The notes beneath the pieces are model-generated. The model ran no database searches. It had not been told where the DNA came from and saw only the letters and a list, made by a program, of their open reading frames with translations. A stretch of 64,000 nucleotides of DNA, taken from Nannocystis sp. SCPEA4 (GTDB taxonomy: Bacteria; Myxococcota_A; Polyangia; Nannocystales; Nannocystaceae). Numbering within the stretch: the stretch's first letter is position 1; each line of letters starts with the position of its first letter. This document shows, one piece after another, positions 24,937 to 44,857 of the stretch. Location of the stretch: assembly GCF_026626685.1 (NCBI RefSeq), contig NZ_JAPNJX010000001.1:76752-140751 (forward strand), written 5' to 3'. The position numbers were made by a program, and so were the translations under genes.

Positions 24937-24938
24937 CA

Positions 24939-24984
24939 CGTGTTCTTCAAGACATGTTCAAAAGAGCATGTCTTGAAGAACACG
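24939..24984 (+). terminator. Perfect 18-bp inverted repeat cgtgttcttcaagacatg/catgtcttgaagaacacg with 10-nt loop between the LOX gene and the next gene; hairpin terminator/attenuator or operator
   Basis: Arms are exact reverse complements. The element is AT-richer than its context and contains the recurring AAGACATG motif. Confidence 0.5.
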
Positions 24985-24992
24985 CCCATACC

Positions 24993-26117: not shown

Positions 26118-26155
26118 TTCGACGACACCCGCCGGTGCCGGGGACTTCACAGGTC

Positions 26156-26806
26156 ATGACCGCCTCGCGCCACCCATCTCTCGCCCTATTCCTCGTCCTC
26201 GTCACCGTGGCCCCCGCCTGCGTGCTCACCCCCGAGCTAGTCGGCGAGACGCTCACCGAGGGCGGGGACTCCGCCACGACCACCTCCGCCGGCACTGCGG
26301 CGAGCGTCACGATCACCACCGCCACGGACTCCGCCGGTCAACCGAATCCGCTGCTCTACGGCCAGCCGTGCGAGCTCGTCGCCGAGGTGTGGGAAGAGAC
26401 CGCCGACCCGCCCGACGAGGACGACGTGGCTCAGCCGATGGCCTCCGCGCTGTCGGTGAGCGAGCAGTGCGTGTCCGGCATGTGCCTCCTGATTTACGAC
26501 GACTACCAGCTGATCGACTGCGAGACCGACGCCGACTGCGGCAAGCCCGAGCTCATCTGCGCCGGCTCCGGCCACTGCGCGCTGGCGCCCGAGTACGTCG
26601 CCGAGCACACCCGCTGCACCCAGGCCTGCGAGACCGCCGCCGACTGCCCGGACATCCCGGGCTGCCAGACGGGTGTCTCCTGTGTGATCGTCAGCCGCCT
26701 CGGCGCCAATTGCTGCCGACCCGTGTGCGCGTGCAACGACCAGCTCAGCGTCGGTCGCAGCGAGGAGCTCGCCGCCATCTGCGCCTACGACCCCGAGTGC
26801 CCCTGA
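26156..26806 (+). CDS. Cys-rich secreted lipoprotein
   Basis: Lipobox TVAPAC, a Thr-rich linker, and 16 Cys in the C-terminal domain. Confidence 0.55.
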   Translation: MTASRHPSLALFLVLVTVAPACVLTPELVGETLTEGGDSATTTSAGTAASVTITTATDSAGQPNPLLYGQPCELVAEVWEETADPPDEDDVAQPMASALSVSEQCVSGMCLLIYDDYQLIDCETDADCGKPELICAGSGHCALAPEYVAEHTRCTQACETAADCPDIPGCQTGVSCVIVSRLGANCCRPVCACNDQLSVGRSEELAAICAYDPECP

Positions 26807-27032: not shown

Positions 27033-27857
27033 TCAGCGCGGCAAGAGCCCCGCCGCCTGCCCGCGCGCGCGCAGCTCGGCCAGCGCCGCCGCGCCCTCGG
27101 CCCCCATGTCGCGCGAGAACTGATTGACGTAGAGGGCGATGTGCTGCCGGCACACCTCGTCGCTCAGCTCCTGCGAATGCGCCTTGACGAACGGCCACGC
27201 CGCGGCCGGGTCGGCCTCCGCCGCCGCGATCGAGCGGGCGATCCCCTCCTCGACCGCGCGCACCTGCCAGGCCGGCAGCGAGCGGTGGGCCGCGATCACC
27301 CCGAGCGGCAGCGGCAGCCCCGTGGCCGCCTCCCACACCTCGCCAAGGTCCGCCACCTGCACCAGCCCGTGGTCGCGGAACACGAACCGCGCCTCGTGGA
27401 TCACCAGCCCCGCGTCGACCTCGCCGGCCGCGACCGCCGGCATGATGCGATCGAAGCGCATCGGCACCACCTTCGCCGACGCCGGGGCGAAGCAGCGCAG
27501 CAGCAGGTGCGCCGTCGTGTACGCGCCCGGGATGGCGATCGTCCGTCCCTCGAGCGCCTCGAGCTCGCCCGCCGCGCGCGCGACCACCAGCGGCCCGCAG
27601 CCGCGGCCCAGCGCCGCACCTGTCCGCAAGACCATGTAGTTGTGCTCGACCCAGAACAACCCGTGCGCGCTCAGCTTCGTCACCGGCAGCGGCTCCTCGC
27701 CGGCCAGCGCGCGCTCGTTGAGCGCCTCGATGTCGGCCAGCCACGGCAGCGGCCGCAGCCCCGGCACGAACTCCGGCACGCGCACCAGCGCGTCGAACAT
27801 CCACGTGTCGTTCGGACACGGCGAGAACCCGATCGGCAGCGGTTCGCTCGCGCTCAT
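27033..27857 (-). CDS. mqnD: 1,4-dihydroxy-6-naphthoate synthase (futalosine pathway)
   Basis: MqnA/MqnD periplasmic-binding-like fold family, ~274 aa with conserved N-terminal IGFSPCPNDT. Confidence 0.75.
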   Translation of the reverse strand: MSASEPLPIGFSPCPNDTWMFDALVRVPEFVPGLRPLPWLADIEALNERALAGEEPLPVTKLSAHGLFWVEHNYMVLRTGAALGRGCGPLVVARAAGELEALEGRTIAIPGAYTTAHLLLRCFAPASAKVVPMRFDRIMPAVAAGEVDAGLVIHEARFVFRDHGLVQVADLGEVWEAATGLPLPLGVIAAHRSLPAWQVRAVEEGIARSIAAAEADPAAAWPFVKAHSQELSDEVCRQHIALYVNQFSRDMGAEGAAALAELRARGQAAGLLPR

Positions 27858-28501
27858 CTCATCCCCCAGTTCGCGGCCTCCAGCCGCCTCAACGCCTCTT
27901 GCACCCCGGTCACCGCGCGCGGCAGATCCCAGCCGCCCGCGGCCCGTCGTCCGGTCCGGTTGCTGACGCAGCGCAGCTGGACCCACGGCACGCCCGCGCG
28001 CCCGCACGCCCACGCCACCGCCGCGCCCTCCATCGTCTCGACCGTCGCCCCCGTCAGGGTCGCCAGCTCGCGCGAGCGCGGGTCGGTCCCGCTGCACGCG
28101 CTGACCGTCGCCCCGCGCACGATCGGCGCCCCGAGCACCCGGGCCGCCGCCGCCGAGCGCTCCGCGTCGGCGTGAAACGGCCCGTTCGACCCCAGCCCCA
28201 GCTGCGACAGCGGCAGGAACCCGTCGTCGGTCGCCACCCCCTCGTCGGCGAGCCACTCGTCGCCGACCAGGCACACGTCGCCGACGTCCAGCCTGCCCCC
28301 CGGGCCATGTCCCTCGGGATAGGCGCCGCAGACCCCGAACAGCAGCACCCACGCCGGCCGGCGCTCGTGCAGCGCCGCGGTCATGGCCACCGCCGCGGCC
28401 ACCTTGCCGACGCCGAGGCGCAGCGCCGAGGGCAGCCCGCGGCCCTCGACCTCGGCGGCGCAGACGAGCAGCGGCGGGGTCACGACCACACGATAGCGCA
28501 C
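27854..28501 (-). CDS. mqnB: Futalosine hydrolase (MTA/SAH-nucleosidase family)
   Basis: PNP/MTAN fold motifs (ETMEGAAVAWAC). Probable GTG start. The 4-bp overlap with mqnD points to an operon. Confidence 0.65.
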   Translation of the reverse strand: MRYRVVVTPPLLVCAAEVEGRGLPSALRLGVGKVAAAVAMTAALHERRPAWVLLFGVCGAYPEGHGPGGRLDVGDVCLVGDEWLADEGVATDDGFLPLSQLGLGSNGPFHADAERSAAAARVLGAPIVRGATVSACSGTDPRSRELATLTGATVETMEGAAVAWACGRAGVPWVQLRCVSNRTGRRAAGGWDLPRAVTGVQEALRRLEAANWGMR

Positions 28502-28799: not shown

Positions 28800-29477
28800 A
28801 TGACACAAACCAACACGGCAGCATTCGTCCGCGTCGAAGGCATCCTGCTCGCCCGCGGCGTGCTCAGCGCGGCGGCCTACCTGGCCGCCAACGCCAAGAA
28901 GTTCGGCGAGCGGGCGCTGCGCCTCGGCCTCGTCGGTCTGGCCGCTCCGGTCCACCGCTTGCTCGGCCAGACCGACCGCGCGCTGGCCCACCGTCTGGCC
29001 CACCTCGCCATCCGCGGCATGAGCCGCGACCGCGTCGAGGTCCTGTGCGAGGAGTACGCCGAGGATGTCCTGAAGGACACCATCCTCGATCAGGGCCTCG
29101 AGCTGCTCAAGCGGCTGCAGGCCGAGGGACGGCGGGTCGTGCTGCTGTCCGACAGCATCGAGCCGATCATGAAGCCGCTCGCGCGTCACCTCAAGCACTA
29201 CGACGAGCTCGTCTTCAACCACATCGAGTTCGAGGACGACGAGGCGACCGGCAGGCTGCTCGATCCGGTCATCGGCTCCAACGTCGGCGGCCGCTGGCTC
29301 GACGACTACGCGGCCGTGCACAAGCTCGAGCTCGCCCGCTGCTCGGCCTACGGCGCCCACGGCCCCGACATGCTGCTGCTCTCGCGCGTCGGCAAGCCGT
29401 GCGCCGTCAACCCCGACTTCGTCCTGCGCCGCAGCGCCAAGGACGCCGACTGGCCGATCATCGACTATCGCGACTGA
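28800..29477 (+). CDS. HAD-superfamily hydrolase, subfamily IB (phosphatase)
   Basis: HAD-IB architecture; the ORF track shows LLSDSIEPIMKP and a D-rich C-terminal motif. Confidence 0.65.
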   Translation: MTQTNTAAFVRVEGILLARGVLSAAAYLAANAKKFGERALRLGLVGLAAPVHRLLGQTDRALAHRLAHLAIRGMSRDRVEVLCEEYAEDVLKDTILDQGLELLKRLQAEGRRVVLLSDSIEPIMKPLARHLKHYDELVFNHIEFEDDEATGRLLDPVIGSNVGGRWLDDYAAVHKLELARCSAYGAHGPDMLLLSRVGKPCAVNPDFVLRRSAKDADWPIIDYRD

Positions 29478-29505
29478 CCTTACGGACAGGAACCGGAGGA
29501 CACCC

Positions 29506-31191
29506 GTGAACACGCCGCTCTCGATCAAGCACTGCTACGCCGGCCGCCACGTCCTGCTCACCGGCGTCACCGGCTTCCTCGGCAAGGTGTGGCTGGCGAT
29601 GGTGCTGCAGCACGTGCCCGAGATCGGCAAGATCTACGTGCTCACCCGCAAGAAGGCGCTGCGCCCGGCGGCCGACCGGTTCGAGCGCCAGGTCCAGACC
29701 TCGCCGTGCTTCCGCCCGCTGCACGAGAAGTACGGCGCCGACATGAGCCGCTTCATCAGCGAGCGGGTCGAGGTCGTCTCCGGCGACGTCTCGCTGCCCG
29801 ACATGGGCGTCGAGGACCCCGAGGTGCTCGCCCGCCTGCGCCGCGACATCGACCTCGTGGTCAACTGCGCCGGCCTCGTCGACTTCGACCCCGACCTGCG
29901 CGACGCCATGACGACCAACGTCGAGGGCGCCCGCAACGCCGCCAACTTCGTCGCCGCCTGCGACAAGGCCGTCCTCCTCCACATCTCGACCTGCTACGTC
30001 ACCGGCAAGAAGAACGGCAAGATCGGGGAGGACATCCGCCCCGACCTCGCGCCCAGCGGCGACGCCTTCGACGTCGAGGCCGAGAGCGCCGACATCCAGA
30101 CCAGCATCGACGCCATCCTCGCCGAGCACGAGTCGCCCGAGATGGACCGGCGCGCCCAGGACGACGCGATCAAGCAGATCCGCGAGAAGGGCGGCGACGA
30201 GAACAACGCGATGCTGGTGCGCAACACCGCCCGCCGGATCAAGCGCAACCTGCTCAAGGACGCGATGGTCGCCGAGGGCCAGCGCCGCGCCGGCCGCTGG
30301 GGCTTCACCAACATCTACACCTTCACCAAGAACATGGCCGAGGCGTGGATCGCCCGCCGCCTCGATCCTGGCCGCTGGGCCATGTTCCGCCCGGCCATCG
30401 TCGAGAGCTCGATGAGCTACCCGTTCCCCGGGTGGAACCAGGGCTTCAACACCTGCGGCCCGCTGAGCTACGCGCTCGGCAGCTGGTTCCGCCACCTGCC
30501 GTGCAAGAAGGGCAACCCCTTCGACATCATCCCGGTCGACTACGTCTGCCGCGGCATGACCGTCGCCGGCGCCGCGCTCATGCGGGGCGAGCACGCGCCC
30601 GTCTACCAGTGCGGCAGCTCCGACCTCAACCTGCTGACCATCGACCGCGCCGTCGAGCTGGTCGCGCTGGCCCACCGCAAGCACCTGCGCACCCGCGGCG
30701 ACACCACCCTCGACCGCGTCGTCAAGTCGCGCTGGGACGCCATCGCCGTCACGCCCGACCACCCGATGCGGATCGAGAACGTGCGCAAGATGACCGAGTC
30801 GGTCGACGAGTGGCTGCGCGACCCGCCGAAGGAGTGGCCGGAGTTCATCCGCCGCCGGCTCACCGACTTCGCCGAGCACACCGAGGACGCGCTCGAGGCG
30901 ATCGACAAGATCGAGCGCATGTGCGAGCTCTACCTGCCGTTCATCCACGACAACCACTTCGCGTTCTACACGCGCAACCTGCTGCGCCACCCCGTGGTCG
31001 AGCCCGAGTGGGACTGCGACCCGCGCAGCATCGACTGGCGCCACTACTGGATCGACGTGCACATCCCCGGGCTGCGCAAGTGGTGCTTCCCGCTGTTCGA
31101 GAACAAGACCCCCGAGAGCTACTCCCCGCGCCACCCCTTCCGCCTGCGCTCGCCCGAGGCCGCGCCCGCGCCCCACGCCGAGGTCGTCTGA
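29506..31191 (+). CDS. Fatty acyl-CoA reductase (alcohol-forming FAR; NAD_binding_4 + FAR_C)
   Basis: [11 protein letters not shown] Rossmann motif, YTFTK catalytic motif, and a C-terminal sterile/FAR_C domain. GTG start with GGAGGA RBS. Confidence 0.85.
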
Positions 31192-31195
31192 CACC

Positions 31196-32341
31196 ATGGC
31201 CATCTTCCTCACCGGAGCCACCGGATACATCGGCTCGTACGTCGCCGCCGGCCTGCTCGACGAGCACCCGAACGAGCGGCTCGCCCTGCTCGTGCGCGCC
31301 AAGGATCCCGCCGAGGCCGAGCAGCGGCTGTGGAAGTCCATGCAGCTGCACATGGACTTCCCGCGCTTCCTCGACCTCGTCCGCACCCGCTGCGACCTCT
31401 ACCTCGGCGACCTGACCTTCCCCGGCCTCGGCCTCGAGGCCGGCGCGCGCGAGAAGCTGGTCCGCACCATGGACTCGGTCATCCACTGCGCCGCGTCGCT
31501 CAACCGCAAGTCGTCGAAGGCCTGCTTCAACGTCAACCTGCGCGGCACCCTGAGCGTCCTCAAGCTCGCGCGCGACGCCCAGGACCAGCACGGCCTGCGC
31601 CGCTTCACCGACATCAGCACGGTCGCGGTCTCCGGCGAGCGCAAGAGCGAGGTCGTCACCGAGGACAACACCGTCGACTGGGACAAGTCCGACTACGACC
31701 CGTACGCGCGGACCAAGAAGTTCTGCGAGCACATGCTGCACGAGCTCCTGCCCGACGTCCCGGGCCTCGTGCTGCGGCCCTCGATCGTCCTCGGCGACAG
31801 CCGCTTCCCCGAGACCACCCAGTTCGACATGGTGCGGGCGTTCGTCATGCTCGCCAAGCTGCCGATCTTGCCGTTCCACCCCGACTGGCGGCTCGACATC
31901 GTCCCGGTCGACTACGTCGCCAAGGCGATCGTCACCCTGCACCAGCGCGACAAGCTGCCGCACGACGCCTACAGCCTCAGCTCCGGCACCGCCTCGCTCA
32001 CCTACCGCCAGGTCGTCGACGCCATGCGGCGCGCCGGCCACCCGGTCAAGCACCGCTTCGTCCCCGGCCTCAACGGCGCGTTCAACCGCGTCGTCGAGAC
32101 CGCCTCCAACACCCCGCGCAACTGGGGCGTCTCGCTCCCGGCCTCGCTGCTCAAGGTGTTCCTGCCCTACCTCACCTTCGACACCGTGTTCGACAACCGC
32201 CGGGTCGTCGACGCCCTCGGCGAGGCGCCCGCCTCGTTCGATCGCTACGCCTACGGGCTCTACCGCTTCGCGGTCGACCACAACTTCAGCTACCCGTACA
32301 AGCCCTGGCCCGGCGGCGCGCAGGTGCGGCAGGTGGCCTAG
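31196..32341 (+). CDS. NAD(P)-binding reductase of the NAD_binding_4 / thioester-reductase type
   Basis: LTGATGYIG and YARTK motifs; 381 aa; lacks the FAR_C domain. Confidence 0.7.
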
Positions 32342-32351
32342 CCCTTCGAAC

Positions 32352-33833
32352 ATGTCCAAGAGCGCACCCGTCAAGAAGACCACCAGCAAGATCTGGGACA
32401 AGGTCAAGGAGGTCGTCGACCCCGACCGCGCCCTCCAGGCCACCGTCGCCGCCGCGATCGAGGGCGTCGCCGTGCGCCACGTGCTCGGCATGTCGCCGGA
32501 GACGTGGAAGCCGGGCAAGCCGCTCAAGCTGCTGCTGGCCGGCTACGTCGGCACGCGCAACACCGGCGCCGACGTCCGCGTCGAGGAGATGATCCGCCAG
32601 CTGCGCCACGTCGTCGGCGACGACGACCTCGAGCTGACGATCATGACCGTCGATCCCAAGCTGACGCGCGGCTACTTCCGCGCCGTCCACCAGATCGAGC
32701 TGCCGGCGGTGTTCCCCAAGTTCATCGCCCAGGAGTGCCCCAAGCACCACGGCGTCATCGCTTGCGAGGGCTCGATGTTCAAGTCGAAGTTCTCGAGCGC
32801 GCTGACCTGCTTCATGGCCGGCTCGCTCGGCCTCGCCAACGCCGAGAACAAGATCAGCGTCGGCTACGGCGCCGAGGCCGGCAGCATGACCCCGGGGCTG
32901 CGTGACTTCGTGCGCGACGCCTGCAAGAAGTCGCTGGTCATCTGCCGCAACGAGCCCTCGCGCCAGGTCCTGGGCGAGCTCGGGATCCGCACCACCTCCG
33001 GGGCCGACACCGCCTGGACCTTCGATCCCGCGCCGCTGTCGCGCGGCGCTCAGCTGCTGCGCGAGGCCGGCTGGGACGGCCGCCAGAAGGTCCTGGTCGT
33101 CTGCCCGATCAACCCGTTCTGGTGGCCGGTCAAGCCCGACCTGCTCAAGTACGCCGCCTACAAGCTCGGCGGTCAGTACAAGCACGAGCACTACAGCGCC
33201 TTCTACTTCCACCACCACAGCGAGGCGGCGGAGAAGAAGTACAACAACTACATCCAGGCCCTGGCCGACGGCGTCAACGCCTTCGCGCAGGAGCGCGAGT
33301 TCTTCACCATCCTCGTCGGCATGGAGCAGCTCGACCGCCACGCCTGCGAGGACCTGCAGCCGCGACTCGACCGCGGCGGCGTGCTGTTCGTCAGCGACGA
33401 GCACGACATGTTCGACCTCGTCAGCGTGCTGCGCAATTGCAGCATGATGGTGAGCTCTCGCTTCCACGCGATCGTCACCTCGATGCCGGGCCTCGTGCCC
33501 TCGGCCGGCGTCACCATGGACGAGCGGATCCGTAACCTCATGAACGATCGCGGCCATCCGGACATGTTCTTCGAGGTCGACGAGGACGACCTCGGCGAGA
33601 AGCTGCTGCACACCCTGCGCCGGCTGTGGCGCGACGCCGACGGCATCAGCGCCGACATCGCCCGCGCCGTCCCGGCCCAGCTCAAGCTCATGGGCCAGAT
33701 GGGCATCGACTTCATGGACGAGGTCGTGCGCGTCTATCCCCAGTTCCCGCGGCGCGACCTCCCGCGCACCTGGGACGCTCACCTGCCGCCGCTGCCGGCC
33801 AACGTGCAGCGCCTGCTGGAGCGCCACGCATGA
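32352..33833 (+). CDS. Polysaccharide pyruvyl transferase-family protein (CsaB/WcaK-like fold)
   Basis: N-terminal LKLLLAGYVGTRNTGADVRVEEMIRQLR and C-terminal SSRFHAIVTSMPGLVPS motifs. The ATG sits inside a GAACATGTCC motif. Confidence 0.6.
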   Translation: MSKSAPVKKTTSKIWDKVKEVVDPDRALQATVAAAIEGVAVRHVLGMSPETWKPGKPLKLLLAGYVGTRNTGADVRVEEMIRQLRHVVGDDDLELTIMTVDPKLTRGYFRAVHQIELPAVFPKFIAQECPKHHGVIACEGSMFKSKFSSALTCFMAGSLGLANAENKISVGYGAEAGSMTPGLRDFVRDACKKSLVICRNEPSRQVLGELGIRTTSGADTAWTFDPAPLSRGAQLLREAGWDGRQKVLVVCPINPFWWPVKPDLLKYAAYKLGGQYKHEHYSAFYFHHHSEAAEKKYNNYIQALADGVNAFAQEREFFTILVGMEQLDRHACEDLQPRLDRGGVLFVSDEHDMFDLVSVLRNCSMMVSSRFHAIVTSMPGLVPSAGVTMDERIRNLMNDRGHPDMFFEVDEDDLGEKLLHTLRRLWRDADGISADIARAVPAQLKLMGQMGIDFMDEVVRVYPQFPRRDLPRTWDAHLPPLPANVQRLLERHA

Positions 33834-35464
33834 GCGACAACTTCCTCGACGTCATCCACGCCGCGGTCCAGAAGACCCGCGAGGATCACCTGCTCATCGA
33901 GCTCCACGGCAAGGAGCGGCGCCCGACCTCGGCCGCGCAGCTGCTGCACCTCGTCGCCCACGCGCGCGGCTTCCTCCGCCGCGCCGGCGTCAAGCCCGGC
34001 GACCGCGTCGCCCTGCTCGCCCCCAACTCCGCGCGGTGGGTCGCGGCTGACCTTTCGATCCTGTTCGAAGGTGCGATCGTCGTCCCCCTCTACAGCCGCC
34101 AGGACCCGCGCGAGCTGGCCGTCATGGTCAAGGACTGCAGCCCGGTGCTCGTCATCGCCGACGGCCCCGAGCTCGCCGCCGGCCTGCGCGGCGCCTGGCC
34201 CGAGCACTGCCCAATCGAGGACCTGCGCGACGTCCTCCGCGGCGATCCGGTGCACGAGCCGCCGCGCCCGGTCGCGCCCGCCGATCCGGTCACGATCATC
34301 TACACCTCCGGCACCAGCGGCGAGCCCAAGGGCGTCGTCCTCACCCGCGCCAACGTCGACTACATGCTGCCGCAGACCCGCAGCAGCGTCGACAAGATCA
34401 CCGGCGGGCAGCGGGCCGACAAGGTGTTCCACTTCCTGCCGTTCTGCTTCGCCGGCTCGCGCATCATGCTGTGGACGCAGCTGTACCGCGGCAACCCGCT
34501 GCTGCTGTCGACCGACCTGCAGAACCTCGTCGCCGAGATGGGCGCCGCCGATCCGCACTACTACCTCAACGTCCCCGCCGTGCTCGAGCGGATCAAGAAC
34601 GGCGTCGGCAAGAAGATCGCGGAGCGCGGCGGCGTCGCCCTCGCCCTCTACCAGCGCGGCCAGGCCGCCTTCCGCCGCCAGCGCGAAGGCAAAGCTGGCC
34701 TTGCGGACAGGCTCACCCTCGCCCTCGCCAAGAGGCTCGTCTTCAGCAAGATCAAGCAGCAGGTCGGGCCCAGCCTCGAGTTCCTGATCTGCGGCTCGGC
34801 CGCGCTCGCCGAAGAGACCCAGTGGTGGTTCGAGCTGATCGGCGTGCAGGTCTACCAGGTCTACGGCCTGACCGAGACCACCGCGATCGTCACCATGGAC
34901 ACCCCCGGCGGCGTGCGCCCCGGCTACGTCGGCCACGCCATCGGCGGCTGCGAGCTCAAGCTCAGCGACGAGGGCGAGCTGCTGGTGCGCGGCCCGGGCA
35001 TCTTCGCCGGCTACTGGAAGCGCGAGCAGGCCACCGCCGAGGCCATCCGCGACGGCTGGTTCCACACCGGCGACCAGTGCGAGCTCGACCACACCGGCAA
35101 CCTGCGGATCATCGGTCGCGTCAAGAACATCCTCGTCCCCGAGTCGGGCCACAACATCGCCCCCGAGCCGATCGAGGAGAAGTTCATGACCGCCTGTCCG
35201 CGCGCCGAGCAGTGCATGCTCGTCGGCCACGCGCGCCCCTTCCTCGGCATCATCGTCCCTGGCGACGTCCCGAAGGAGGACATCGACGCCGCGCTCGAGG
35301 TCGTCAACGCCAGCGTCCCGCACTACAAGAAGATCCGCGCCTTCATCCGCGTCGCCGACCCGTTCACCATCGAGAACGGCCTCCTCACCGCCAACCAGAA
35401 GCTGCGGCGCCGCGCCGTCGAGCAGCGCTACCGCGCCGAGATCGACAGGGCCTACGCGTCATGA
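33830..35464 (+). CDS. Long-chain acyl-CoA synthetase (AMP-dependent ligase)
   Basis: YTSGTSGEPKG, YGLTET and GWFHTGD motifs. Start overlaps the upstream stop (ATGA). Confidence 0.85.
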   Translation: MSDNFLDVIHAAVQKTREDHLLIELHGKERRPTSAAQLLHLVAHARGFLRRAGVKPGDRVALLAPNSARWVAADLSILFEGAIVVPLYSRQDPRELAVMVKDCSPVLVIADGPELAAGLRGAWPEHCPIEDLRDVLRGDPVHEPPRPVAPADPVTIIYTSGTSGEPKGVVLTRANVDYMLPQTRSSVDKITGGQRADKVFHFLPFCFAGSRIMLWTQLYRGNPLLLSTDLQNLVAEMGAADPHYYLNVPAVLERIKNGVGKKIAERGGVALALYQRGQAAFRRQREGKAGLADRLTLALAKRLVFSKIKQQVGPSLEFLICGSAALAEETQWWFELIGVQVYQVYGLTETTAIVTMDTPGGVRPGYVGHAIGGCELKLSDEGELLVRGPGIFAGYWKREQATAEAIRDGWFHTGDQCELDHTGNLRIIGRVKNILVPESGHNIAPEPIEEKFMTACPRAEQCMLVGHARPFLGIIVPGDVPKEDIDAALEVVNASVPHYKKIRAFIRVADPFTIENGLLTANQKLRRRAVEQRYRAEIDRAYAS

Positions 35465-36234
35465 TCGACTGGACCTACGACAGCGGCGTCTACGAGCTCA
35501 CCCTCGCCACGCCGCCCTGCAACGAGATCGGCACGGCGATGCTCGCCGATCTGCGCCGCTTCATCGACCAGATCGATCGCGACGCCCACACCCTCATCCT
35601 CCGCAGCGGCCTGCGCCAGGGCTTCTGCGCCGGCGCCGACCTGCGCGAGCTCTACCGCGGCCTGTGCGACGCCCCCGCCGAGCAGCACGGCCCGCAGATC
35701 CGCAAGTTCATCGACGAGATCCACGGCGTCATGGACGACCTCGACATGCTGCCGCTGACCACCGTCGGCGTCGTCCACGGCGTCTGCTTCGGCGGCGGCT
35801 TCGAGCTCGCGCTCACCTGCGACGTCCTGATCGCCGAGAAGTCGGCCCGCTTCTGCTTCCCCGAGCTGCGCCTCGGCATCATCCCCGGCTTCGGCGGGAT
35901 CCCGCGCCTGCGCCGCGACGTCGGCAACGGCCTCATCCGCGACCTCCTGCTCAGCGGCCGCAGCATCAACGCCAAGAAGGCCCAGGCCGCCGGCCTCGTC
36001 AGCCAGGTCGTCGCCGGCGGCGAGGGCATCACCGCCGCGCGCGCCCTCGCGGCCCAGACCGCCAAGTTCGATCCGACGGCGCGCAAGGCCGCCAAGGCCT
36101 TCATCAAGAAGCTCCCGACCGACGAGCTCGTCGCCGAGCGCGAGCTGTTCGTCCGCCTGGCCCAGGGACCCGCGCTGCTGGCCGCCCTCAAGCGCTTCGT
36201 CGAATCCACCGACCTGCGGCCCTACCTGCCATGA
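35461..36234 (+). CDS. Enoyl-CoA hydratase/isomerase (crotonase fold)
   Basis: Crotonase motifs GFCAGADL and GGGFELALTCD. ATGA overlap with the upstream gene. Confidence 0.85.
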   Translation: MIDWTYDSGVYELTLATPPCNEIGTAMLADLRRFIDQIDRDAHTLILRSGLRQGFCAGADLRELYRGLCDAPAEQHGPQIRKFIDEIHGVMDDLDMLPLTTVGVVHGVCFGGGFELALTCDVLIAEKSARFCFPELRLGIIPGFGGIPRLRRDVGNGLIRDLLLSGRSINAKKAQAAGLVSQVVAGGEGITAARALAAQTAKFDPTARKAAKAFIKKLPTDELVAERELFVRLAQGPALLAALKRFVESTDLRPYLP

Positions 36235-36261
36235 GCCTCCTCGTTCCACACCAGCGCGGAG

Positions 36262-36597
36262 CCTCGAGCTGCGACGCATCTCTTGTTCCGCATTGGCGCG
36301 GGACCTCGAGCTGCGACTCGTCTCTTGTTTCGCGCGGGCGCGGGGCCTCGAGCTGCGACACATCTCTTGGTCCGCATTGGCGCGGGGCCTCGAGCTGCGA
36401 CGCATCTCTTGGTCCGCATTGGCGCGGGGCCTCGAGCTGCGACGCATCTCTTGGTCCGCATTGGCGCGGGGCCTCGAGCTGCGACGCATCTCTTGGTCCG
36501 CATTGGCGCGGAACCTCGAGCTGCGGCTCGTCTCTTGTTCCGCGCCGGTGCGGGGCCTCGAGCTGCGCCTCGTCTCTTGTTCCGCGCTGGCGCGGGG
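36262..36597. repeat. 42-bp minisatellite x8 (cctcgagctgcgacgcatctcttggtccgcattggcgcgggg), non-coding
   Basis: Eight head-to-tail units, the central four identical. The periodic ORFs on both strands are repeat artefacts. Confidence 0.8.
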
Positions 36598-36879
36598 CCA
36601 CGGAGACCCGGGGGGGTCGGCCCGGGCGCGGCGGAGCGGGTCCCTCGCTACGCGAGACCTGCCATGCCAGGTGCTCGCCGGCGATGTTTTGCTCTCCGCT
36701 TTCCGAAGGTTCTCTCGCCGTCTGCGCGCCAGGCATGGGGCCCCTCGCTGCGTCCCACTCCGCCGCGCCCGGGCCGACCCAGAAGATCCTCGAGCGGCCC
36801 CGCTCATCCCCGCGCGGCTGTCCCTTCGGTCCTGCTTCCAGGAACCTGTCTGAACGAGCAGGAGTGACGCTCTCCGTCT

Positions 36880-37560
36880 CTCGACAAGCGGTACCCCTCA
36901 CGCCCTCCGTTCTCTCGTTCGAAGCGACCATCTCCGCCTCACGACAAGCAGGGCCCGCCACGACCTCCTCGCGCGAAGCGACCATCTCCGCCTCACGACA
37001 AGCGGGGCCCGCCACTGCCTCCGCTCTCTCGCTCGAAGCGACCATCTCCGCCTCACGGCAAGCGGGGCCCGCCACGGCCTCCGCTCTCTCGCGCGAAGCG
37101 GTCATCTCCGCCTCACGACAAGCGGGGCCCACCACAATCTTCTGGGGCGGCCTCGCGGCGGCGGAGTGGGACGCAGCGAGGGGCCCCATGCCTCACGCGC
37201 AGACGCGGGATCAATCCTCGGACATGCCCCATCGCCCTTCCGCGTCGAGCATGTGGCATGGCAGGTCTCGCGTCGCGAGGGACCCGCTCCGCCGCCGCGA
37301 GGCCGCCCCTCCCCGCTCCCCACGGCCCCGCGTCTCCGCACACGCGATTCCCGATGCCTCTCGCCTGAGCCGCTCCCCACGGCCCCGCGTCCCCGCGCAC
37401 GCGATCCGAGACGACTCTCGCCTGAGCCGCTCCTCACGGCCCCGCGTCCCCGCGCACGTGCTCTTCGACGCGTCTCGCCCGAGCCGCCCGAGCAGCCCCG
37501 CGTCCGAGCACGCCTGATTCCCGTCCCGACAGCAGAAGCCCGCAGAACATTGAGAGCAAA
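36880..37560. repeat. Dispersed composite repeat, copy B: ~60-bp unit x4.5 (36885-37140), shared core (37100-37330), second ~58-bp unit x3 (37330-37500)
   Basis: ~95% identity to 505-577 plus 1888-2050. Both tandem blocks are collapsed to one unit in copy A. Contains the GGACATGCCCCAT motif. Confidence 0.75.
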
Positions 37561-37564
37561 TCCG

Positions 37565-37798
37565 ATGAGCGACACTCTCGACACACTCATCCGTCTCGCC
37601 GCCAAGCGCTTCGGCGCCGATCCGGCCAAGCTCCGCGCCGAGGACGACCTGTTCGAGCGCCTGGGCATCGACAGTTTTCAGGCCGTCGAGCTCATCTCGG
37701 ACGTCGAGGACGAGTTCGACGTCGAGCTGCCCGACTACGAGCTTCAGGGGATCAAGACCTTCGCTGCTCTGGCGCAGAAGATCGACGCGAGGCGCTAG
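37565..37798 (+). CDS. Acyl carrier protein
   Basis: 77 aa; LGIDSFQAVEL phosphopantetheine-attachment motif. Confidence 0.85.
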   Translation: MSDTLDTLIRLAAKRFGADPAKLRAEDDLFERLGIDSFQAVELISDVEDEFDVELPDYELQGIKTFAALAQKIDARR

Positions 37799-39514
37799 AT
37801 GCTCGACCTGGGAAAGCTGTCCTGCCTGGGCGAGGCGCTGCGTGACGCCACCATCACGTACAAGAGCCGCGTCGCGCTGATCGAGGCCGATCGGCACCGC
37901 GAGAATTCGCGCCACACCTTCGCCGAGCTGCGGGCGCAGGCCGAGCGGTTCGGGGCTGGCCTGCAGGTTCACGGGTTCGGACCTGGCGATCGCTGTGCGA
38001 TCGTCATGCAGAATCAGTCGAAGTGGCTCATCGGCGCCACCGGGGCCTTGTGGGCCGGCGCCGTCCTCGTCCCCATCGACTACAAGTTGACCGCGCCCGA
38101 GCAGCACGCCTTGCTCGCGCACTGTCGGCCGCGGGTCGTGCTCGCGGAGTGGCCGGCGTGGGACAAGCTGCAGCGCGAGGATCCCTCGATCTTCGAGCGC
38201 ACCCTCGTCATCGTCACCGAGGCGCCCGACGGGGCCAACATCGGCCGGGCGCTGCGCTGGGAGGACCTGCCCCAGGGGTCAGGTTTCACCTTTCACGCGC
38301 GAGCGCGCGAGGACGTCGCCTGCATCGTCTACTCCTCGGGCACCGGCGGAGCGGCCAAGGGTTGCCAGCTCTCGCACGCCAACTACATGGCGCAGGCCGA
38401 GACGCTCGGCAACCTCTACCCGCTGAGCGAGGGTGATCGATACTTCTCGATCCTCCCGACCAACCACGCCATCGACTTCATGTGCGGCTTCTTGCTCGCG
38501 CTGATGATGGGCGGCGCCGTCGTCCACCAGCGGACCTTGAGGCCGGCCTATCTGGCCAGCACCATGAAGCGATACGGCATCACGCACATGGCGCTGGTGC
38601 CGACGATCCTCAAGACCCTCGAGAAGAAGATCAAGGACAAGATCGCCGAGCTGCCGAAGTGGCAGCGGCTCGTGCTCGACGGGCTCATGGACATCAACGA
38701 GTACGCCACCCGGCAGGCGCCGAACCACGGGCTGAGCAAGACCTTGCTGGCCCCGATCCACGAGTATTTCGGCGGCAAGCTGCGGCTCATGTTCTGCGGC
38801 GGCGCCTTCGTCGACCGCCAGAGCGCCGAGTACTTCAACCGGCTCGGGCTGCCGGTCGTCATCGGCTACGGCCTCACCGAGGCCGGCACCGTCCTCACCG
38901 TCAACGACCTCAAGCCGTTCCGCGGCGACAGCGTCGGCAAGGCGGTCGAGGGCACCGAGATCGAGCTGCGCGACGTCAACGAGAGCGGCGTCGGCGAGGT
39001 GTGGGTGCGGGGCCCCACCGTCATGTTGGGTTATCTCGACGCGCCCGAGCTGACGCGCGAGGCGATCGTCGATGGTTGGCTGCGGACCGGCGACCTCGGC
39101 ACCATGGACGCTGCCGGGCACCTCAAGCTGCTCGGTCGCACCAAGAACATGATCGTCACCGAGGGCGGCAAGAACGTCTATCCGGAGGACATCGAGGCCG
39201 CCTTCGGCGACATCGACGACTGCGAGGAGTTCTGCGTGTTCGCGGCCAACTTCATCTGGCCGACCGGCAAGATGACCGACGAGCAGCTGATCGTCGTCGT
39301 GCGGCCCAAGGCCGGGCTCGACGAGGCCGCGCGGGCCGACGTCATCGACGCCTTCCGCAAGCGCAACCGCCAGCTCGCCGACTACAAGCGGATCTCCGCC
39401 TACGTCCTGTGGGAGCGCGAGTTCCCGCGCACCGCCTCGCAGAAGATCAAGCGCGACCCTCTCGCCCGCGAGCTCAAGCCGCTCGGCCGCGCCCTCGCCC
39501 TGCGCGAGCTGTAA
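37799..39514 (+). CDS. AMP-dependent synthetase/ligase (acyl-ACP/acyl-CoA synthetase)
   Basis: YSSGTGGAAKG, GYGLTE and GWLRTGD motifs. ATG overlaps the ACP stop. Confidence 0.85.
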   Translation: MLDLGKLSCLGEALRDATITYKSRVALIEADRHRENSRHTFAELRAQAERFGAGLQVHGFGPGDRCAIVMQNQSKWLIGATGALWAGAVLVPIDYKLTAPEQHALLAHCRPRVVLAEWPAWDKLQREDPSIFERTLVIVTEAPDGANIGRALRWEDLPQGSGFTFHARAREDVACIVYSSGTGGAAKGCQLSHANYMAQAETLGNLYPLSEGDRYFSILPTNHAIDFMCGFLLALMMGGAVVHQRTLRPAYLASTMKRYGITHMALVPTILKTLEKKIKDKIAELPKWQRLVLDGLMDINEYATRQAPNHGLSKTLLAPIHEYFGGKLRLMFCGGAFVDRQSAEYFNRLGLPVVIGYGLTEAGTVLTVNDLKPFRGDSVGKAVEGTEIELRDVNESGVGEVWVRGPTVMLGYLDAPELTREAIVDGWLRTGDLGTMDAAGHLKLLGRTKNMIVTEGGKNVYPEDIEAAFGDIDDCEEFCVFAANFIWPTGKMTDEQLIVVVRPKAGLDEAARADVIDAFRKRNRQLADYKRISAYVLWEREFPRTASQKIKRDPLARELKPLGRALALREL

Positions 39515-39544
39515 TCGTCCTCCGGGGCCTGATAGGCTGCACCC

Positions 39545-40453
39545 ATGCACGATCCGGCCGCACTCCTCGCAGTCGTCAATCCAGCCGCCGGCGGCGGCGT
39601 GTGCGGCAAGCGGGCTCCCGCGGCCGTCGAGCGGCTGCGGCAGTCGGGCGTCAAGGTCGACGTCGTCGAGACGAGGGCGCCCGGTCAGGCCACCGACGTC
39701 GCGCGCGAGGCCGTCGCCGCCGGGCGGCGCCACTTCATCGCCGTCGGCGGCGACGGCACCAGCTACGAGCTCATCAACGGTATCTTCTCCGGCGCCTTGC
39801 CCGCGGGCGAGCGGCCCTCGCTCGGCATGCTGCCTCTCGGGACAGGCAACTCCTTCCTGCGCGACTTCACCGACCAGGGCGCCGAGTACGCGATCGAGGC
39901 CATCATCGCCGGCAAGACGCGCCCGTGCGACCTCATCCGCTGCACCCACACGCGCGGCGCCCTGCACTTCATCAACATCTTCAGCATCGGTTTCGTCGCC
40001 GACGTCGGCGCCACCCGCAACCGCAGCTTCTCCGGCCTGGGCGAGTTCGGCTACACCCTGAGCACCGTGCTGCGGGTCGCCGCGCTGCGGCCGTACACCT
40101 TCCCGATGCAGATCGACGGTCAGCCCGAGGATCGGGAGCCGCTGACCTTCCTCTCGTTCAACAACAGCCGCTTCACCGGCGGCAAGATGATGATGGCGCC
40201 CGACGCCAACACGCGCGACGGTCTGCTCGACATCATCCGTGTCGGCCGCCTGGGCCGCGTCGGGCTGCTGCGCACCTTCCCGAAGATCTTCAGCGGCACC
40301 CACGTGCAGCACCCGGCCGTGCGCTGCTATCAGGCCCCTGGCCTCGACCTCCGCCTCGCCGACGACATCGACGTGATGGTCGACGGCGAGATGATCAAGA
40401 TCAACCCGCGGCGGCTGGAGGTCGTCCCGGCCGCGCTCGATGTCCGGACGTGA
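39545..40453 (+). CDS. Lipid kinase of the diacylglycerol-kinase catalytic-domain family (YegS/BmrU-like)
   Basis: GGDGT motif, DAGK_cat fold, ~300 aa. Confidence 0.8.
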   Translation: MHDPAALLAVVNPAAGGGVCGKRAPAAVERLRQSGVKVDVVETRAPGQATDVAREAVAAGRRHFIAVGGDGTSYELINGIFSGALPAGERPSLGMLPLGTGNSFLRDFTDQGAEYAIEAIIAGKTRPCDLIRCTHTRGALHFINIFSIGFVADVGATRNRSFSGLGEFGYTLSTVLRVAALRPYTFPMQIDGQPEDREPLTFLSFNNSRFTGGKMMMAPDANTRDGLLDIIRVGRLGRVGLLRTFPKIFSGTHVQHPAVRCYQAPGLDLRLADDIDVMVDGEMIKINPRRLEVVPAALDVRT

Positions 40454-40458
40454 TCGTC

Positions 40459-41253
40459 ATGGTGTTCAAGTTCATCAAGAAGGCAGCTCAGGTCGTCTAC
40501 TCCGCCGTCGTCTGGACGGTCTCGTTCACATGGATGGGCGCCGTCGCCGTCACGTGGGCCGCCGTGTCCACCGTCGTGCCCTCGCGCAAGACCCACAACT
40601 ACATCGGCGGGCCCGGCATGGGCGCCGTCCTCAAGATCACGCTGAGCCGCGTCGAGATCATCTACGACCCCGACTTCGACCCCGAGCGGCGCGGCGTGTT
40701 CATGCAGAATCACGTCAACCTGCTCGACGCGCACGCCGCCTGCGCCTCGATCCCGCACGCCTTCTGCGGGCTGATGAACGCCTGGCAGTTCAAGATCCCG
40801 ATGTACGGCTGGATCATGAAGCTCGCCGACGGCATCCCGGTGCCGAACGGCTCCAACCGCTACCGTGCGATCGCCGAGGCCGCGCGCGACCGGGCCAAGA
40901 AGGGCATCTCGATCCTCGCCTTCCCCGAGGCTCATCGCACGCTCGACGGCAAGGTCGCCGAGTTCAAGCGCGGCGTGTTCTGGATGGCCCGGATCGCCGG
41001 CTTGCCGGTCATCCCGCTGGCCACGCACGGCATGTACGATCTGATGCAGAAGGGCTCGTACCTGCTGACGCCGTCCCGGATCACGATCTACGTCGGCGCG
41101 CCGATCGAGACCAAGGGCCTGTCCGACGCCGAGCTCGCGCAGGTCATGGAGCGGGCCCACAAGATCATCGCCGACTTCGCCGAGCGCGGCATCGTGCCCG
41201 GGCGCACTGCTCCGATCCCCTCCGACGTGACGCCGATCGCCTCCGGGGCGTGA
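40459..41253 (+). CDS. 1-acyl-sn-glycerol-3-phosphate acyltransferase family (LPLAT/PlsC) membrane protein
   Basis: NHVNLLD (HX4D) and FPEAHRT (FPEGTR) motifs; N-terminal TM helix. Confidence 0.85.
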   Translation: MVFKFIKKAAQVVYSAVVWTVSFTWMGAVAVTWAAVSTVVPSRKTHNYIGGPGMGAVLKITLSRVEIIYDPDFDPERRGVFMQNHVNLLDAHAACASIPHAFCGLMNAWQFKIPMYGWIMKLADGIPVPNGSNRYRAIAEAARDRAKKGISILAFPEAHRTLDGKVAEFKRGVFWMARIAGLPVIPLATHGMYDLMQKGSYLLTPSRITIYVGAPIETKGLSDAELAQVMERAHKIIADFAERGIVPGRTAPIPSDVTPIASGA

Positions 41254-42596: not shown

Positions 42597-43804
42597 GGTG
42601 TTACTGATCAGGTTGAGGCGCGAATTTGCGCCTCGCGCAAAAACCTGATCTACAGGCTTCATGAGGCAGAAGAAGCCGACCCGGCCGTGGTTCCCCGGGC
42701 TCAAGCTCAAGCAGGAAGATCGAGAGCTCCTGCGTCGTAAGGCGCGGGAGCGGCTCACCGAGAGGACCTGGAAGCGGATCCGTGCGCTTCAGATGCTGGA
42801 CGAGGGGTACTCGCTTGCAGCCACGGCGGCGGCGATCGGTTCGGCCGTTCCGTCGGTGCGTCGTGTCGGGGAGCGATATCTCGCCTCTGGCGTCGAGGTA
42901 GCGCTGAAGGATGCGAAGCGACCACTTCGGCCACGAAGGCTCGACACGCGACAGGAGGCGGCGATCATCGCCATGGTCTGCGGGCCTGCCCCCGAAGGCC
43001 GCGCTCGATGGACGATCATGCTCATCGTCGAAGAGAGCATCAAACGCGGGATCGTCGACGAGGTCGGTCGGGAGACGATCCGCGTGCTGCTCAAGAACCA
43101 CGAACTGAAACCGTGGCGGGAAAAAAATGTGGTGCGTCCCACGACTGGACGAGCACTACGTGGCGCGCATGGACGACGTACTCGACACGCTCGCGCAACC
43201 GCAGGACGCGGCCGAGCCAGTCGTCGCACTCGATGAGCGGCCAGTCGTCCTCCGTGACTCTGCGCGGCAAGGCCGCTGCGCGTCACCCGGCCGGTTGGCG
43301 CGCATGGACTACGAATACGTACGTCGCGGGACCGCGAACATCTTCTGCATCGTCGAACCGAAGGCCGGCCGTCACATGACCTTCGCCACGCCGAACCGCA
43401 AAGGCTGCGAGTTCGCGCGTGCGCTCCGGAAGATCGCCCGCCGATACTCCTCTGCGAGGACGATCCACCTGGTCATGGATAACCTCAGCACGCACAGCCA
43501 GAACTCCTTGTGCACAGCCTTCGGAGATCAAGCGGGACGTGCGCTGTGGAATCGCTTCACGGTGCACTACACACCGAAGCACGGCAGCTGGCTCAACCCC
43601 GCCGAGATCGAAGCGAGCCTGTGGTCACGCGAGTGCCTCGGGCGCCTGCGCATCGGCTCGCTCGCAGAGCTTCGCCGTCGAACGTCTCGATGGAACGCCG
43701 ACGCTCACCGGCGACGCCGGAAGATCACCTGGCGGTTCACGAAAGAACGTGCCCGCTCCGTGTTCAAGATCGACCAGATCGATACGGCCCGGTCGCGGCA
43801 CTAG
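42597..43804 (+). mobile_element. Degenerate IS630-family (Tc1/mariner-like) element; inverted repeat gatcaggtt...aacctgatc at the 5' side, no recognisable right end
   Basis: The transposase reading frame is split. Its 3' end overlaps the stop of the convergent hydrolase gene by 4 bp, leaving no room for a right IR. Confidence 0.6.
42661..43804 (+). pseudogene. IS630-family transposase interrupted by a +1 frameshift at an A7 homopolymer (~43118-43124); orfA 42661-43236, orfB frame from 43127
   Basis: Frame A ends ...LKPWREKNVV. Frame +1 reads KKMWCVPRLDEHY, the conserved IS630 KPWREKMWCVP junction, which would be restored by A6. Confidence 0.75.
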
Positions 43805-44622
43805 CCCCTGGCGAACGCCAGCAGGTCGGCGTTCAGTTGCTGCTGGTGCGTCTGCGCCAGCCCGTGCGGCCCGCCGGCGTACACCTTCAGCGTCGCGCCC
43901 TTCACCAGCTTGCTCGACAGCGCGGCCGAGTTGGCGAAGGGCACGATCTGGTCGTCGTCGCCGTGGATGACCAGCGTCGGCACCGTGAAGCGTTTGAGGT
44001 CCTCGGTGAAATCCGTCTCCGAGAACGCCTTGATACAGTCGTACTGGCCCTTCAGCCCGCCCATCATGCCCTGCAGCCAGAAGCTGTCGCGCATGCCCTG
44101 CGACACCTGTGAGTCGGGGCGGTTGGCGCCGAAGAACGGCCCCGACAGGTCGCGGTAGAACTGCGAGCGGTCGGCCGCCACCCCGCGGCGAATGTCGGCG
44201 AAGAACGTCAGCGGCAGGCCGTTCGGGTGCGACGGCGACTGCACCATCACCGGCGGCACCGCGCCGACCAGCACCGCCTTCGCCACGCGCTCCTGCCCGT
44301 GACGGCCGATGAAGCGCGCCACCTCGCCGCCGCCGGTCGAGTGCCCGACCATGATCGCCTGCTTCAGGTCGAGCGCCGCGAACAGCTCGGCGAGATCGTC
44401 GGCGTACTGGTCCATGTCGTTGCCCTGCCACGGCTGACTCGATCGCCCGTGGCCGCGACGGTCGTGGCCGATCGCGCGGAAGCCATGGTCGGCCAGGTAC
44501 ATCATCTGGGCGTCCCACGCGTCGGCCGTGAGCGGCCAGCCGTGACTGAAGACCACCGGCTGCCCCGTGCCCCAGTCCTTGAAGTAGATCGTCGTCCCGT
44601 CCTTGGTCGTGATGTGCGGCAT
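43801..44622 (-). CDS. Alpha/beta hydrolase (non-haem haloperoxidase/arylesterase family)
   Basis: HGWPL and GHSTGG motifs; 273 aa from the ATG at 44622. Confidence 0.85.
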
Positions 44623-44857
44623 CGGCGTCGTCCCCCGGGCGCACACTGTGGTCCGGGGCTGCCCCGCGCGAGCCAGGACCTCGCCCGCGTCACCGCGGAC
44701 CTGCATCACGACGGGGGTCGTCGACCCACACGCAGATCTGCGCGTGCCCCGCGACCCGCGTGACAGCCGAACACCGCCTGTCTCTTCGGACATCTGCGAA
44801 GCGTGCAGCTGCACCTATGCTCGCTCCAGCTCGCGCTCTGCGAGCGCCGAGCACCGC

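Follow-up and report, generated by a model that had tools for sequence, protein, structure and literature searches.

The stretch of DNA analysed here (hereafter the window) comprises 64,000 nucleotides of Nannocystis sp. SCPEA4 (contig NZ_JAPNJX010000001.1, positions 76,752 to 140,751 of the forward strand). Between its positions 28800 and 41253 lies a cassette of ten genes which, judged by its domain content, is an uncharacterised, putative lipid gene set conserved in order across three phyla. The window has ~70% G+C and its raw lists of open reading frames (ORFs) are full of spurious frames; genes were called by profiling the G+C content of third codon positions (GC3) and by Pfam scans. All ten genes are intact and lie on the plus strand, each with a strong GC3 coding signal and with proper start and stop codons. 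They are given below together with a block of repeats that stands among them (aa, amino acids).

28800..29477, plus strand: HAD-IB-like protein, 225 aa (PF12710, E 1.6e-17)
29506..31191, plus strand: fatty acyl-CoA/ACP reductase (FAR), 561 aa (NAD_binding_4, E 3e-49; Sterile, E 5.5e-4, below threshold)
31196..32341, plus strand: second reductase, an SDR protein resembling thioester reductases, 381 aa (NAD_binding_4, E 1.3e-44)
32352..33833, plus strand: enzyme of GT-B fold in the polysaccharide-pyruvyl-transferase family, 493 aa (PS_pyruv_trans, PF04230)
33830..35464, plus strand: ligase 1 (ACS1), a FadD11-like acyl-CoA synthetase, 544 aa (AMP-binding, E 2.4e-60, and AMP-binding_C_3)
35461..36234, plus strand: enoyl-CoA hydratase/crotonase, 257 aa (ECH_1, E 3.6e-37)
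36237..37564, no strand: non-coding repeat insertion, 1,328 bp, with tandem arrays and inverted palindromic units
37565..37798, plus strand: acyl carrier protein (ACP), 77 aa (PP-binding, E 1.7e-13; serine of the GIDSF motif present)
37799..39514, plus strand: ligase 2 (ACS2), an AMP-ligase, 571 aa (AMP-binding, E 9.2e-71)
39545..40453, plus strand: lipid kinase of the YegS/Rv2252/BmrU family, 302 aa (DAGK_cat and YegS_C)
40459..41253, plus strand: PlsC-type acyltransferase, 264 aa (PF01553, E 1.4e-14; frame set by translation)

A preliminary description of this DNA had named these ten products, co-directional and in this order, and all of its domain calls were confirmed by the Pfam searches. 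It had spoken of eleven genes, but ten are present and its own list also runs to ten. Overlapping stop and start codons had been placed at 33830, 35461 and 37799; the first two overlaps exist (ATGA), whereas at the third the stop codon of the ACP gene (37796-37798) abuts the next ATG. Nor are the genes contiguous, since 1,328 bp part the stop codon of the crotonase gene (36234) from the start of the ACP gene (37565). N. exedens has the same ten genes in its annotation.

The GT-B enzyme was used as the marker for the cassette. Two of its motifs were scanned over one genome per species, which gave at least 600 stretches, 586 of them confirmed, in species-representative genomes, and the best 80 marker loci were surveyed by tblastn with all ten window proteins. 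These loci belong to Myxococcota (Nannocystaceae, Polyangiales, Sandaracinaceae and Bradymonadia), to Bdellovibrionota and, many of them, to Acidobacteriota (Terriglobia, Blastocatellia and Acidiferrales). At least nine of the ten genes stand on one strand at 31 of the 44 loci that have enough flanking sequence, and 25 of these 44 loci are colinear. Because of these counts the ten-gene arrangement is far beyond what chance would give, and on the evidence of gene order the cassette is a predicted functional unit and not a chance neighbourhood.

Conservation varies along the set. It is highest for the GT-B enzyme and the second SDR (about 50-76%) and lowest for the FAR and the PlsC-type protein (about 30-60%). 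Within the genus the FAR shares 94% identity with its N. exedens counterpart, and Paraliomyxa has most of the ten-gene set. The PlsC gene was undetected in many Terriglobia loci. At one locus of this kind (L052, 16912-18673) and at 13 other Terriglobia loci without a detected PlsC gene, the kinase gene is followed by three conserved genes, an ORF of ~140 aa with no Pfam match, a VKOR gene and an esterase gene. At some loci (L008-L014 and L067) the cassette falls apart into one block of HAD-FAR-SDR-GT-B(-ligase 1) and another of crotonase-ACP-ligase 2-kinase(-PlsC). Among the best matches to ligase 2 there are also natural fusions, one of a crotonase with an ACS2-type ligase (P0249, 846 aa) and one of two ligases (P0251, 1,157 aa), which, as far as protein architecture can tell, tie parts of the cassette together. 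Further conserved pathway genes were sought in the neighbourhood, and only lineage-specific additions were found, namely, besides the three Terriglobia genes named above, FabH in Blastocatellia and TetR in Myxococcota, Bradymonadia and Bdellovibrionota.

To our knowledge neither Acidobacteriota nor Bdellovibrionota are phyla known for fruiting-body development. The cassette is common in both, and this speaks against a role confined to the development of myxobacteria. A link to the genes for ceramide phosphoglycerate, which we had presumed to exist, could not be substantiated.

The two reductases retain the YxxxK motif in their orthologues, the FAR in 61 of 61. Its NAD_binding_4 domain scores 167.9 bits against a cut-off of 20.1 and its best solved relative is the fatty acyl-CoA reductase 7eoz (E 1.2e-33), whereas the Sterile domain reaches 20.5 bits against 35.4 and stays below threshold. 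Domain, motif and likeness to a characterised FAR agree with the assignment; alcohol-forming (four-electron) activity is predicted only. Aldehyde-forming and alcohol-forming reductases are not separated by sequence. The second SDR is 49-76% conserved across phyla and matches the thioester reductase model TIGR01746 with 140 bits, below the cut-off. Ligase 1 likewise remains below the cut-off of the FadD11 model (204 bits), and it is dispensable in about ten related loci, where no match to ligase 1 was found (L012, L016, L018, L023-L025, L029, L038, L045 and L078). Both ligases keep a P-loop-like motif across orthologues, and it is likely that ligase 2 loads the ACP. The crotonase (ECH_1, 128.5 bits against a cut-off of 27) has both catalytic glutamates, with GGGFE in 57 and FPE in 56 of 58 orthologues. 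The lipid kinase is the sole product above a curated NCBIfam cut-off (TIGR00147, 151.5 bits against 118.65) and its GGDG motif is present in 42 of 42 orthologues. The PlsC-type protein scores 54.5 bits for PF01553 against a cut-off of 23; it has the HX4D motif as NHVNLLD together with FPEAHRT, and HX4D is found in 23 of 24 orthologues.

The first gene departs from this pattern. Its product had been called a HAD-IB phosphatase, and membership of the HAD family (PF12710) stands, although the scores for TIGR01490 and TIGR01488 are below the cut-offs. The function does not follow from it. Where HAD enzymes carry the DxDGT nucleophile motif, motif I of the window protein reads RVEG, and R-[VAI]-[ED]-G was found in 55 of 56 orthologues (loci L001-L084) and DxDG[TS] in none of the 56. 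Motif IV of the window protein also looks degenerate. By comparison, HAD genes that adjoin ElbD-type genes retain FDLDGT, FDVDGT or YFDVDGT. Because the catalytic DxD motif is lost throughout the orthologues, a classical phosphatase role is unlikely, and the protein is probably a conserved pseudo-phosphatase or has taken on a new role.

The GT-B enzyme passes the Pfam gathering score for PF04230 and has a GT-B fold. It is one of the two best-conserved products of the cassette (50-70% across phyla), with a mean column identity of 71% over 18 sequences, and it scores 72.8 bits against the CsaB equivalog model, for which the cut-off is 213. Characterised members of PF04230 use phosphoenolpyruvate (PEP) as donor. 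In comparison with the pyruvyl transferases of this family (CsaB, WcaK and Pvg1p) the enzyme is long, ~490 aa against the ~300 positions of the CsaB model and the 329 residues of the Pvg1p chain. Moreover it is placed in a lipid operon without glycan genes and is far more conserved.

The nearest described system is the elb operon of Myxococcus xanthus, which has five genes encoding an NAD epimerase (elbA), a HAD phosphohydrolase (elbB), a protein with no assigned function (elbC), ElbD and a further NAD epimerase (elbE) (PMC9131029). ElbD has the order FAR-ACS-ACP-AGPAT and is needed for the alkyl and vinyl ether lipids of M. xanthus (PMC9131029). A pan-genome study reported the canonical elb/VEPE cluster to be absent from Nannocystis, Polyangium and Sorangium (PMC12224551), so that these taxa may well have a system of another kind.

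When the full library was searched with ligase 2, its orthologues came first, followed by a tier at ~250-290 bits; ElbD-type proteins are its nearest relatives outside the orthologues. Among the 150 best representatives 33 were proteins of 1,340-1,700 aa, and the four of these long proteins that were tested all had the ElbD architecture (NAD_binding_4-Sterile-AMP-binding-PP-binding-Acyltransferase). The modules were compared by blastp with seven ElbD-type proteins of 1,430-1,580 aa, M. xanthus ElbD not being among them. The FAR is 27-34% identical to the N-termini of these proteins over ~540 aa, with the Sterile-like tail included. Ligase 2 shows 28-34% identity to them (215-280 bits, against 104-172 bits for ligase 1), the ACP 27-32%, and the PlsC-type protein 25-29% to their acyltransferase domain. 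Between the HAD-like protein and the products of HAD genes adjoining ElbD-type genes the identity is 25-31%. By these alignments the FAR, ligase 2, the ACP, the PlsC-type protein and the HAD-like protein are true remote homologues of the ElbD-type modules and of their HAD partner.

The dissociated ElbD-type inventory of the preliminary description is borne out by this module homology (25-34% identity). Nevertheless the cassette is no elb operon and its gene content differs. With the elb cluster (MIBiG BGC0000871) it shares a FAR with a Sterile-like tail, an adenylating ligase, an ACP, a PlsC-type acyltransferase and a HAD-IB-type protein. These are separate genes in another order here, and domains of one multidomain ElbD there. 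The DxD motif of the HAD partner is kept beside ElbD-type genes and lost in the cassette, which adds the GT-B enzyme, the thioester-reductase-like SDR, a second ligase, the crotonase and the lipid kinase. The preliminary wording, that the same chemistry was present in separate proteins to which a kinase, a phosphatase and a crotonase were added, had left out three of these additions (GT-B enzyme, SDR and second ligase) and had counted on a phosphatase whose motif is lost.

Synteny with elb, which had been proposed as a test, was not found at the ElbD-type loci compared. At the ElbD-type locus used for comparison (L088, 1217-9620) genes for a HAD protein, a Lar_N protein (lactate-racemase-like, 525 aa), ElbD (1,578 aa) and an NAD epimerase follow each other, which matches the published elbB-C-D-E order. 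The Lar_N gene (ElbC position) and the epimerase gene (ElbE position) have no counterpart in the cassette: no window protein resembles the Lar_N protein of L088, and between the second SDR and the ElbE-like epimerase of that locus identity is no more than 23%. The other ElbD-type loci have ElbD with a HAD gene only, or ElbD alone, and none has a pyruvyl-transferase-like gene. ElbC had been considered as the counterpart of the pyruvyl-transferase-like gene, and this was ruled out, as L088 has the dissimilar Lar_N protein in that place. The gene order suggests that the ElbC of M. xanthus, so far listed as unknown, may be a protein of the Lar_N/DUF2088 type. A second Lar_N gene was seen at another locus (L085, 16838-18472), 4.4 kb downstream of ElbD, where it adjoins a gene of the DAG-kinase family.

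Two other known systems can be set beside the cassette. The plasmalogen pathway of MXAN_1676-1674 and of eukaryotes (FAR-GNPAT-AGPS) also has a FAR of the NAD_binding_4 and Sterile type and an acyltransferase of the PlsC family, and its later steps (reduction, acylation and phosphate handling) have possible analogues here. However, no AGPS gene (FAD_binding_4/FAD-oxidase_C) was found among the ten products or the other window genes scanned, and the FAR and the acyltransferase are unfused in the cassette. Aas of Escherichia coli also combines a ligase, an ACP and a PlsC-type transferase, and the PlsC-type protein matches region 439-556 of the Aas model (PRK08633, 40 bits against a cut-off of 1221). 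Aas is a single fused protein which works with the housekeeping ACP, whereas the cassette has a dedicated ACP and seven further genes.

Our best guess is that the product of the cassette is a fatty-alcohol-derived, possibly ether-type, glycerolipid. More specifically, and with a confidence that stays somewhat short of even, the cassette may be read as a relative of the ElbD machinery in dissociated form, which with its extra steps would yield a phosphatidate-like, probably ether-type, glycerolipid. Free fatty acids would be adenylated; ligase 1 would pass them to CoA, and ligase 2 to the dedicated ACP. One of these acyl pools would be reduced by the FAR, the second reductase or both to a fatty aldehyde or alcohol, and the GT-B enzyme might couple the lipid alcohol with a small phosphorylated donor, the donor in its family being PEP. 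The crotonase and the second reductase could act on an ACP-bound thioester intermediate by hydration and reduction. Finally the kinase and the PlsC-type protein would phosphorylate and acylate the molecule to the proposed glycerolipid. We infer every substrate, the order of the steps and the product from family chemistry.

In favour of this reading the ten domain calls hold and, with the exception of the HAD-like protein, the catalytic motifs are retained across orthologues. The homology to ElbD-type proteins and to their HAD partner, the solved relative of the FAR, the gene order shared from Nannocystis to Bdellovibrionota, Terriglobia and Blastocatellia, and the natural fusions also count in its favour. 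Several points weigh against it. Identity to the ElbD modules is only 25-34%. The cassette is without AGPS, a GNPAT-type enzyme, a CDP-alcohol transferase or any known ether-forming enzyme, and no glycerol-phosphate-specific enzyme could be named in it. The best structural matches of the GT-B enzyme are glycosyltransferases such as PimA, and in place of PEP the enzyme could take a nucleotide sugar as donor. The substrate specificities stand as predictions only, because the NCBIfam matches other than that of the kinase fall below their curated cut-offs. A single transcript across the ten genes is likewise only predicted, and in some genomes the cassette is cut in two, the 7-8-kb gaps of L010 and L014 holding unrelated genes. 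In the literature searches the cassette was nowhere described, and no product is recorded for any of its members. Even ElbD has never been shown to form fatty alcohol or to transfer acyl groups in vitro (PMC9131029).

Five other explanations have to be weighed against the ElbD-related glycerolipid, and one of them dispenses with ether chemistry. Ligase 2, the ACP and the PlsC-type protein would then act as a split Aas in phospholipid remodelling or salvage and the kinase would recycle diacylglycerol, with the reductases and the GT-B enzyme modifying head groups or serving another branch. We regard this as unlikely. The match of the PlsC-type protein to the acyltransferase part of the Aas model (E 8.8e-11), the separable ACP-ligase-kinase-PlsC block (L067, L008-L014) and the kinase as the sole member above a curated family cut-off are all in keeping with it, but it leaves unexplained why the FAR, the second reductase, the crotonase and the GT-B enzyme stand in fixed order across three phyla. 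The PlsC gene is moreover the least conserved of the set and often undetected, whereas the FAR, SDR and GT-B genes form the constant core. Two reductases of the FAR/thioester-reductase type could also serve to make free or esterified fatty alcohols or aldehydes, as a wax-ester-like store or a diffusible lipid signal, with no membrane glycerolipid being formed; the i15:0 aldehyde of M. xanthus does depend on ElbD (PMC9131029). To this we give little probability, as no wax synthase of the WS/DGAT type was found in the cassette or in the other window genes scanned and as the conserved lipid kinase, ACP and PlsC-type protein point to assembly of a phospholipid kind. That the elb operon of M. xanthus has its Nannocystis orthologue in the cassette, with elbD merely split, is highly improbable. 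Five products are homologous to ElbD/ElbB modules and the canonical elb cluster was reported absent in Nannocystis (PMC12224551), and both points speak for it, yet the gene content contradicts it: the Lar_N and epimerase genes are missing, five conserved genes are extra and the catalytic motif of the HAD protein is lost. The split cassette is also old and widespread, and no recent fission of elbD.

The remaining two explanations turn on the GT-B enzyme. Pfam and NCBIfam group it with polysaccharide pyruvyl transferases of the CsaB/WcaK type, and it might be a true member of these, in which case the other genes would build a lipid carrier that anchors a pyruvylated envelope glycan. This seems to us quite unlikely, given that the genes conserved with the cassette include no glycosyltransferase, flippase, polymerase or sugar-nucleotide gene (a GT87 gene is found in Paraliomyxa only) and that 50-70% conservation across phyla would be unusually rigid for an enzyme decorating glycans. 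The other explanation is an ether route independent of AGPS. The GT-B enzyme would move the enolpyruvyl group of PEP onto the fatty alcohol made by the FAR, giving a 2-alkoxyacrylate which ligase 2 would load on the ACP and which the crotonase would hydrate to 2-O-alkyl-glyceroyl-ACP; the SDR would then release 2-O-alkylglycerol, and the kinase and the PlsC-type protein would convert it to an alkyl-acyl-glycerophosphate. A chemically sensible job is thereby given to every conserved gene that is foreign to elb. The placement of the GT-B enzyme in PF04230, a family with characterised members that use PEP, the two glutamates retained by the crotonase, the existence of an ECH-ligase 2 fusion and the persistence of ECH-ACP-ACS2 after the GT-B gene in loci without ligase 1 are all consistent with such a route. 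It is nevertheless improbable in our judgement, for it rests wholly on inference, the structural neighbours of the GT-B enzyme are mostly nucleotide-sugar enzymes and ligase 2 is closest to fatty-acid-activating domains. It also counts against the route that we know of no enolpyruvyl ether lipid or sn-2 alkylglycerol from these taxa.

The block that interrupts the cassette (36237-37564) has no coding signal. It is built of a 42-nt array (8.2 copies), a 60-nt array (4.5 copies) and a 57-nt array (3.4 copies), and it also holds an inverted pair of a palindromic unit of ~220-240 nt with a predicted fold of -143 kcal/mol (z -5.8). Rfam gave no match in the window, and no terminal inverted repeats were seen at the block. 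The insertion point is exactly the ATGA at which the crotonase and ACP genes overlap, and the hexamer ATGAGC is duplicated with one copy on each side, one of them preserving the stop codon and the other the start codon. Three other Nannocystis genomes do not have the block, those of N. exedens, N. pusilla and Nannocystis sp. RBIL2 (loci L001, L006 and L027). The two genes share an ATGA overlap in N. exedens, and they overlap or abut in N. pusilla and RBIL2. The genes on either side of the block are intact and 93-99% identical to those of the other Nannocystis genomes, with 97-99% for the ACP. This comparison indicates that the 1.3-kb repeat block was inserted recently in this genome and that neither flanking gene was damaged; because ATGAGC is duplicated at its flanks, a mobile or recombination-driven insertion is suggested.

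The same palindromic unit (92-95% identical) occurs at 486-577 and 1886-2070 of the window. In this copy an element of ~1.3 kb that encodes an IS110-family transposase on the minus strand (593-1633; DEDD_Tnp_IS110 and Transposase_20) interrupts the loop of the hairpin, whose 27-nt arms lie at 541-567 and 1990-2016. The unit looks like a repetitive extragenic palindromic (REP)-like repeat which would serve as a target for IS110. In other genomes genes stand at the same junction as the repeat insertion of the window: at L043 a Pfam-scanned gene for a FabH-like KAS III (15281-16282) is placed between the crotonase and ACP genes, and an ORF of the same size was seen there in L050, L058 and L068 (Blastocatellia and related Acidobacteriota).

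Upstream of the cassette genes of the futalosine-pathway type (VitK2_biosynth and PNP_UDP_1; 27033-28500, minus strand) diverge from it, as they do in N. exedens, and ORFs at 24937-26806 have coding-like GC3 and no Pfam match. Downstream of it an ADYC-domain gene was found, together with a fragment of a DDE_3 transposase and a gene for an alpha/beta hydrolase. Among the other window genes scanned no further matching lipid gene was seen. The transposase fragment (IS630-type, 43127-43804) abuts the hydrolase gene (43801-44814, minus strand), whose product is 64% identical to that of a gene which, in the acidobacterial locus L073, lies 4 kb upstream of the cassette; this may be a coincidence.

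What is new in the cassette is that five modules are related to ElbD while the rest is different, with a strongly conserved GT-B enzyme at its centre. If its product were an ordinary remodelling intermediate, it would be a well-conserved but unremarkable lipid operon. Few bacterial routes to ether lipids are known, namely ElbD, AGPS and the anaerobic PlsA/Ger type. There is a slim chance that Acidobacteriota, Polyangiia-type Myxococcota and Bdellovibrionota have an oxygen-tolerant ether route that is independent of AGPS, ElbD and Ger. Should this be true, the GT-B enzyme would be a new ether-bond-forming enzyme, and the alkyl-glycerol backbone would be made from fatty alcohol and PEP with the help of the crotonase, ligase 2, the ACP and the SDR.

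The ether pathway of Acidobacteria, which is tied to the palaeoclimate proxies based on brGDGTs (glycerol dialkyl glycerol tetraethers of the branched type), has been called unclear, with elb or agps present in some subdivision-4 genomes only (PMC11868695). The same survey calls ElbD homologues by blastp with E<1e-30 and at least 30% identity (PMC11868695). Such a threshold would catch some of the separate FAR and ligase 2 genes of the cassette, and ElbD would be overcounted. The cassette is abundant in Terriglobia, in Blastocatellia and in myxobacteria without the canonical elb cluster (PMC12224551), and thereby offers a concrete and testable gene set; if true, the PEP-based route could be considered as the origin of the unexplained ether bonds in acidobacterial membrane lipids.

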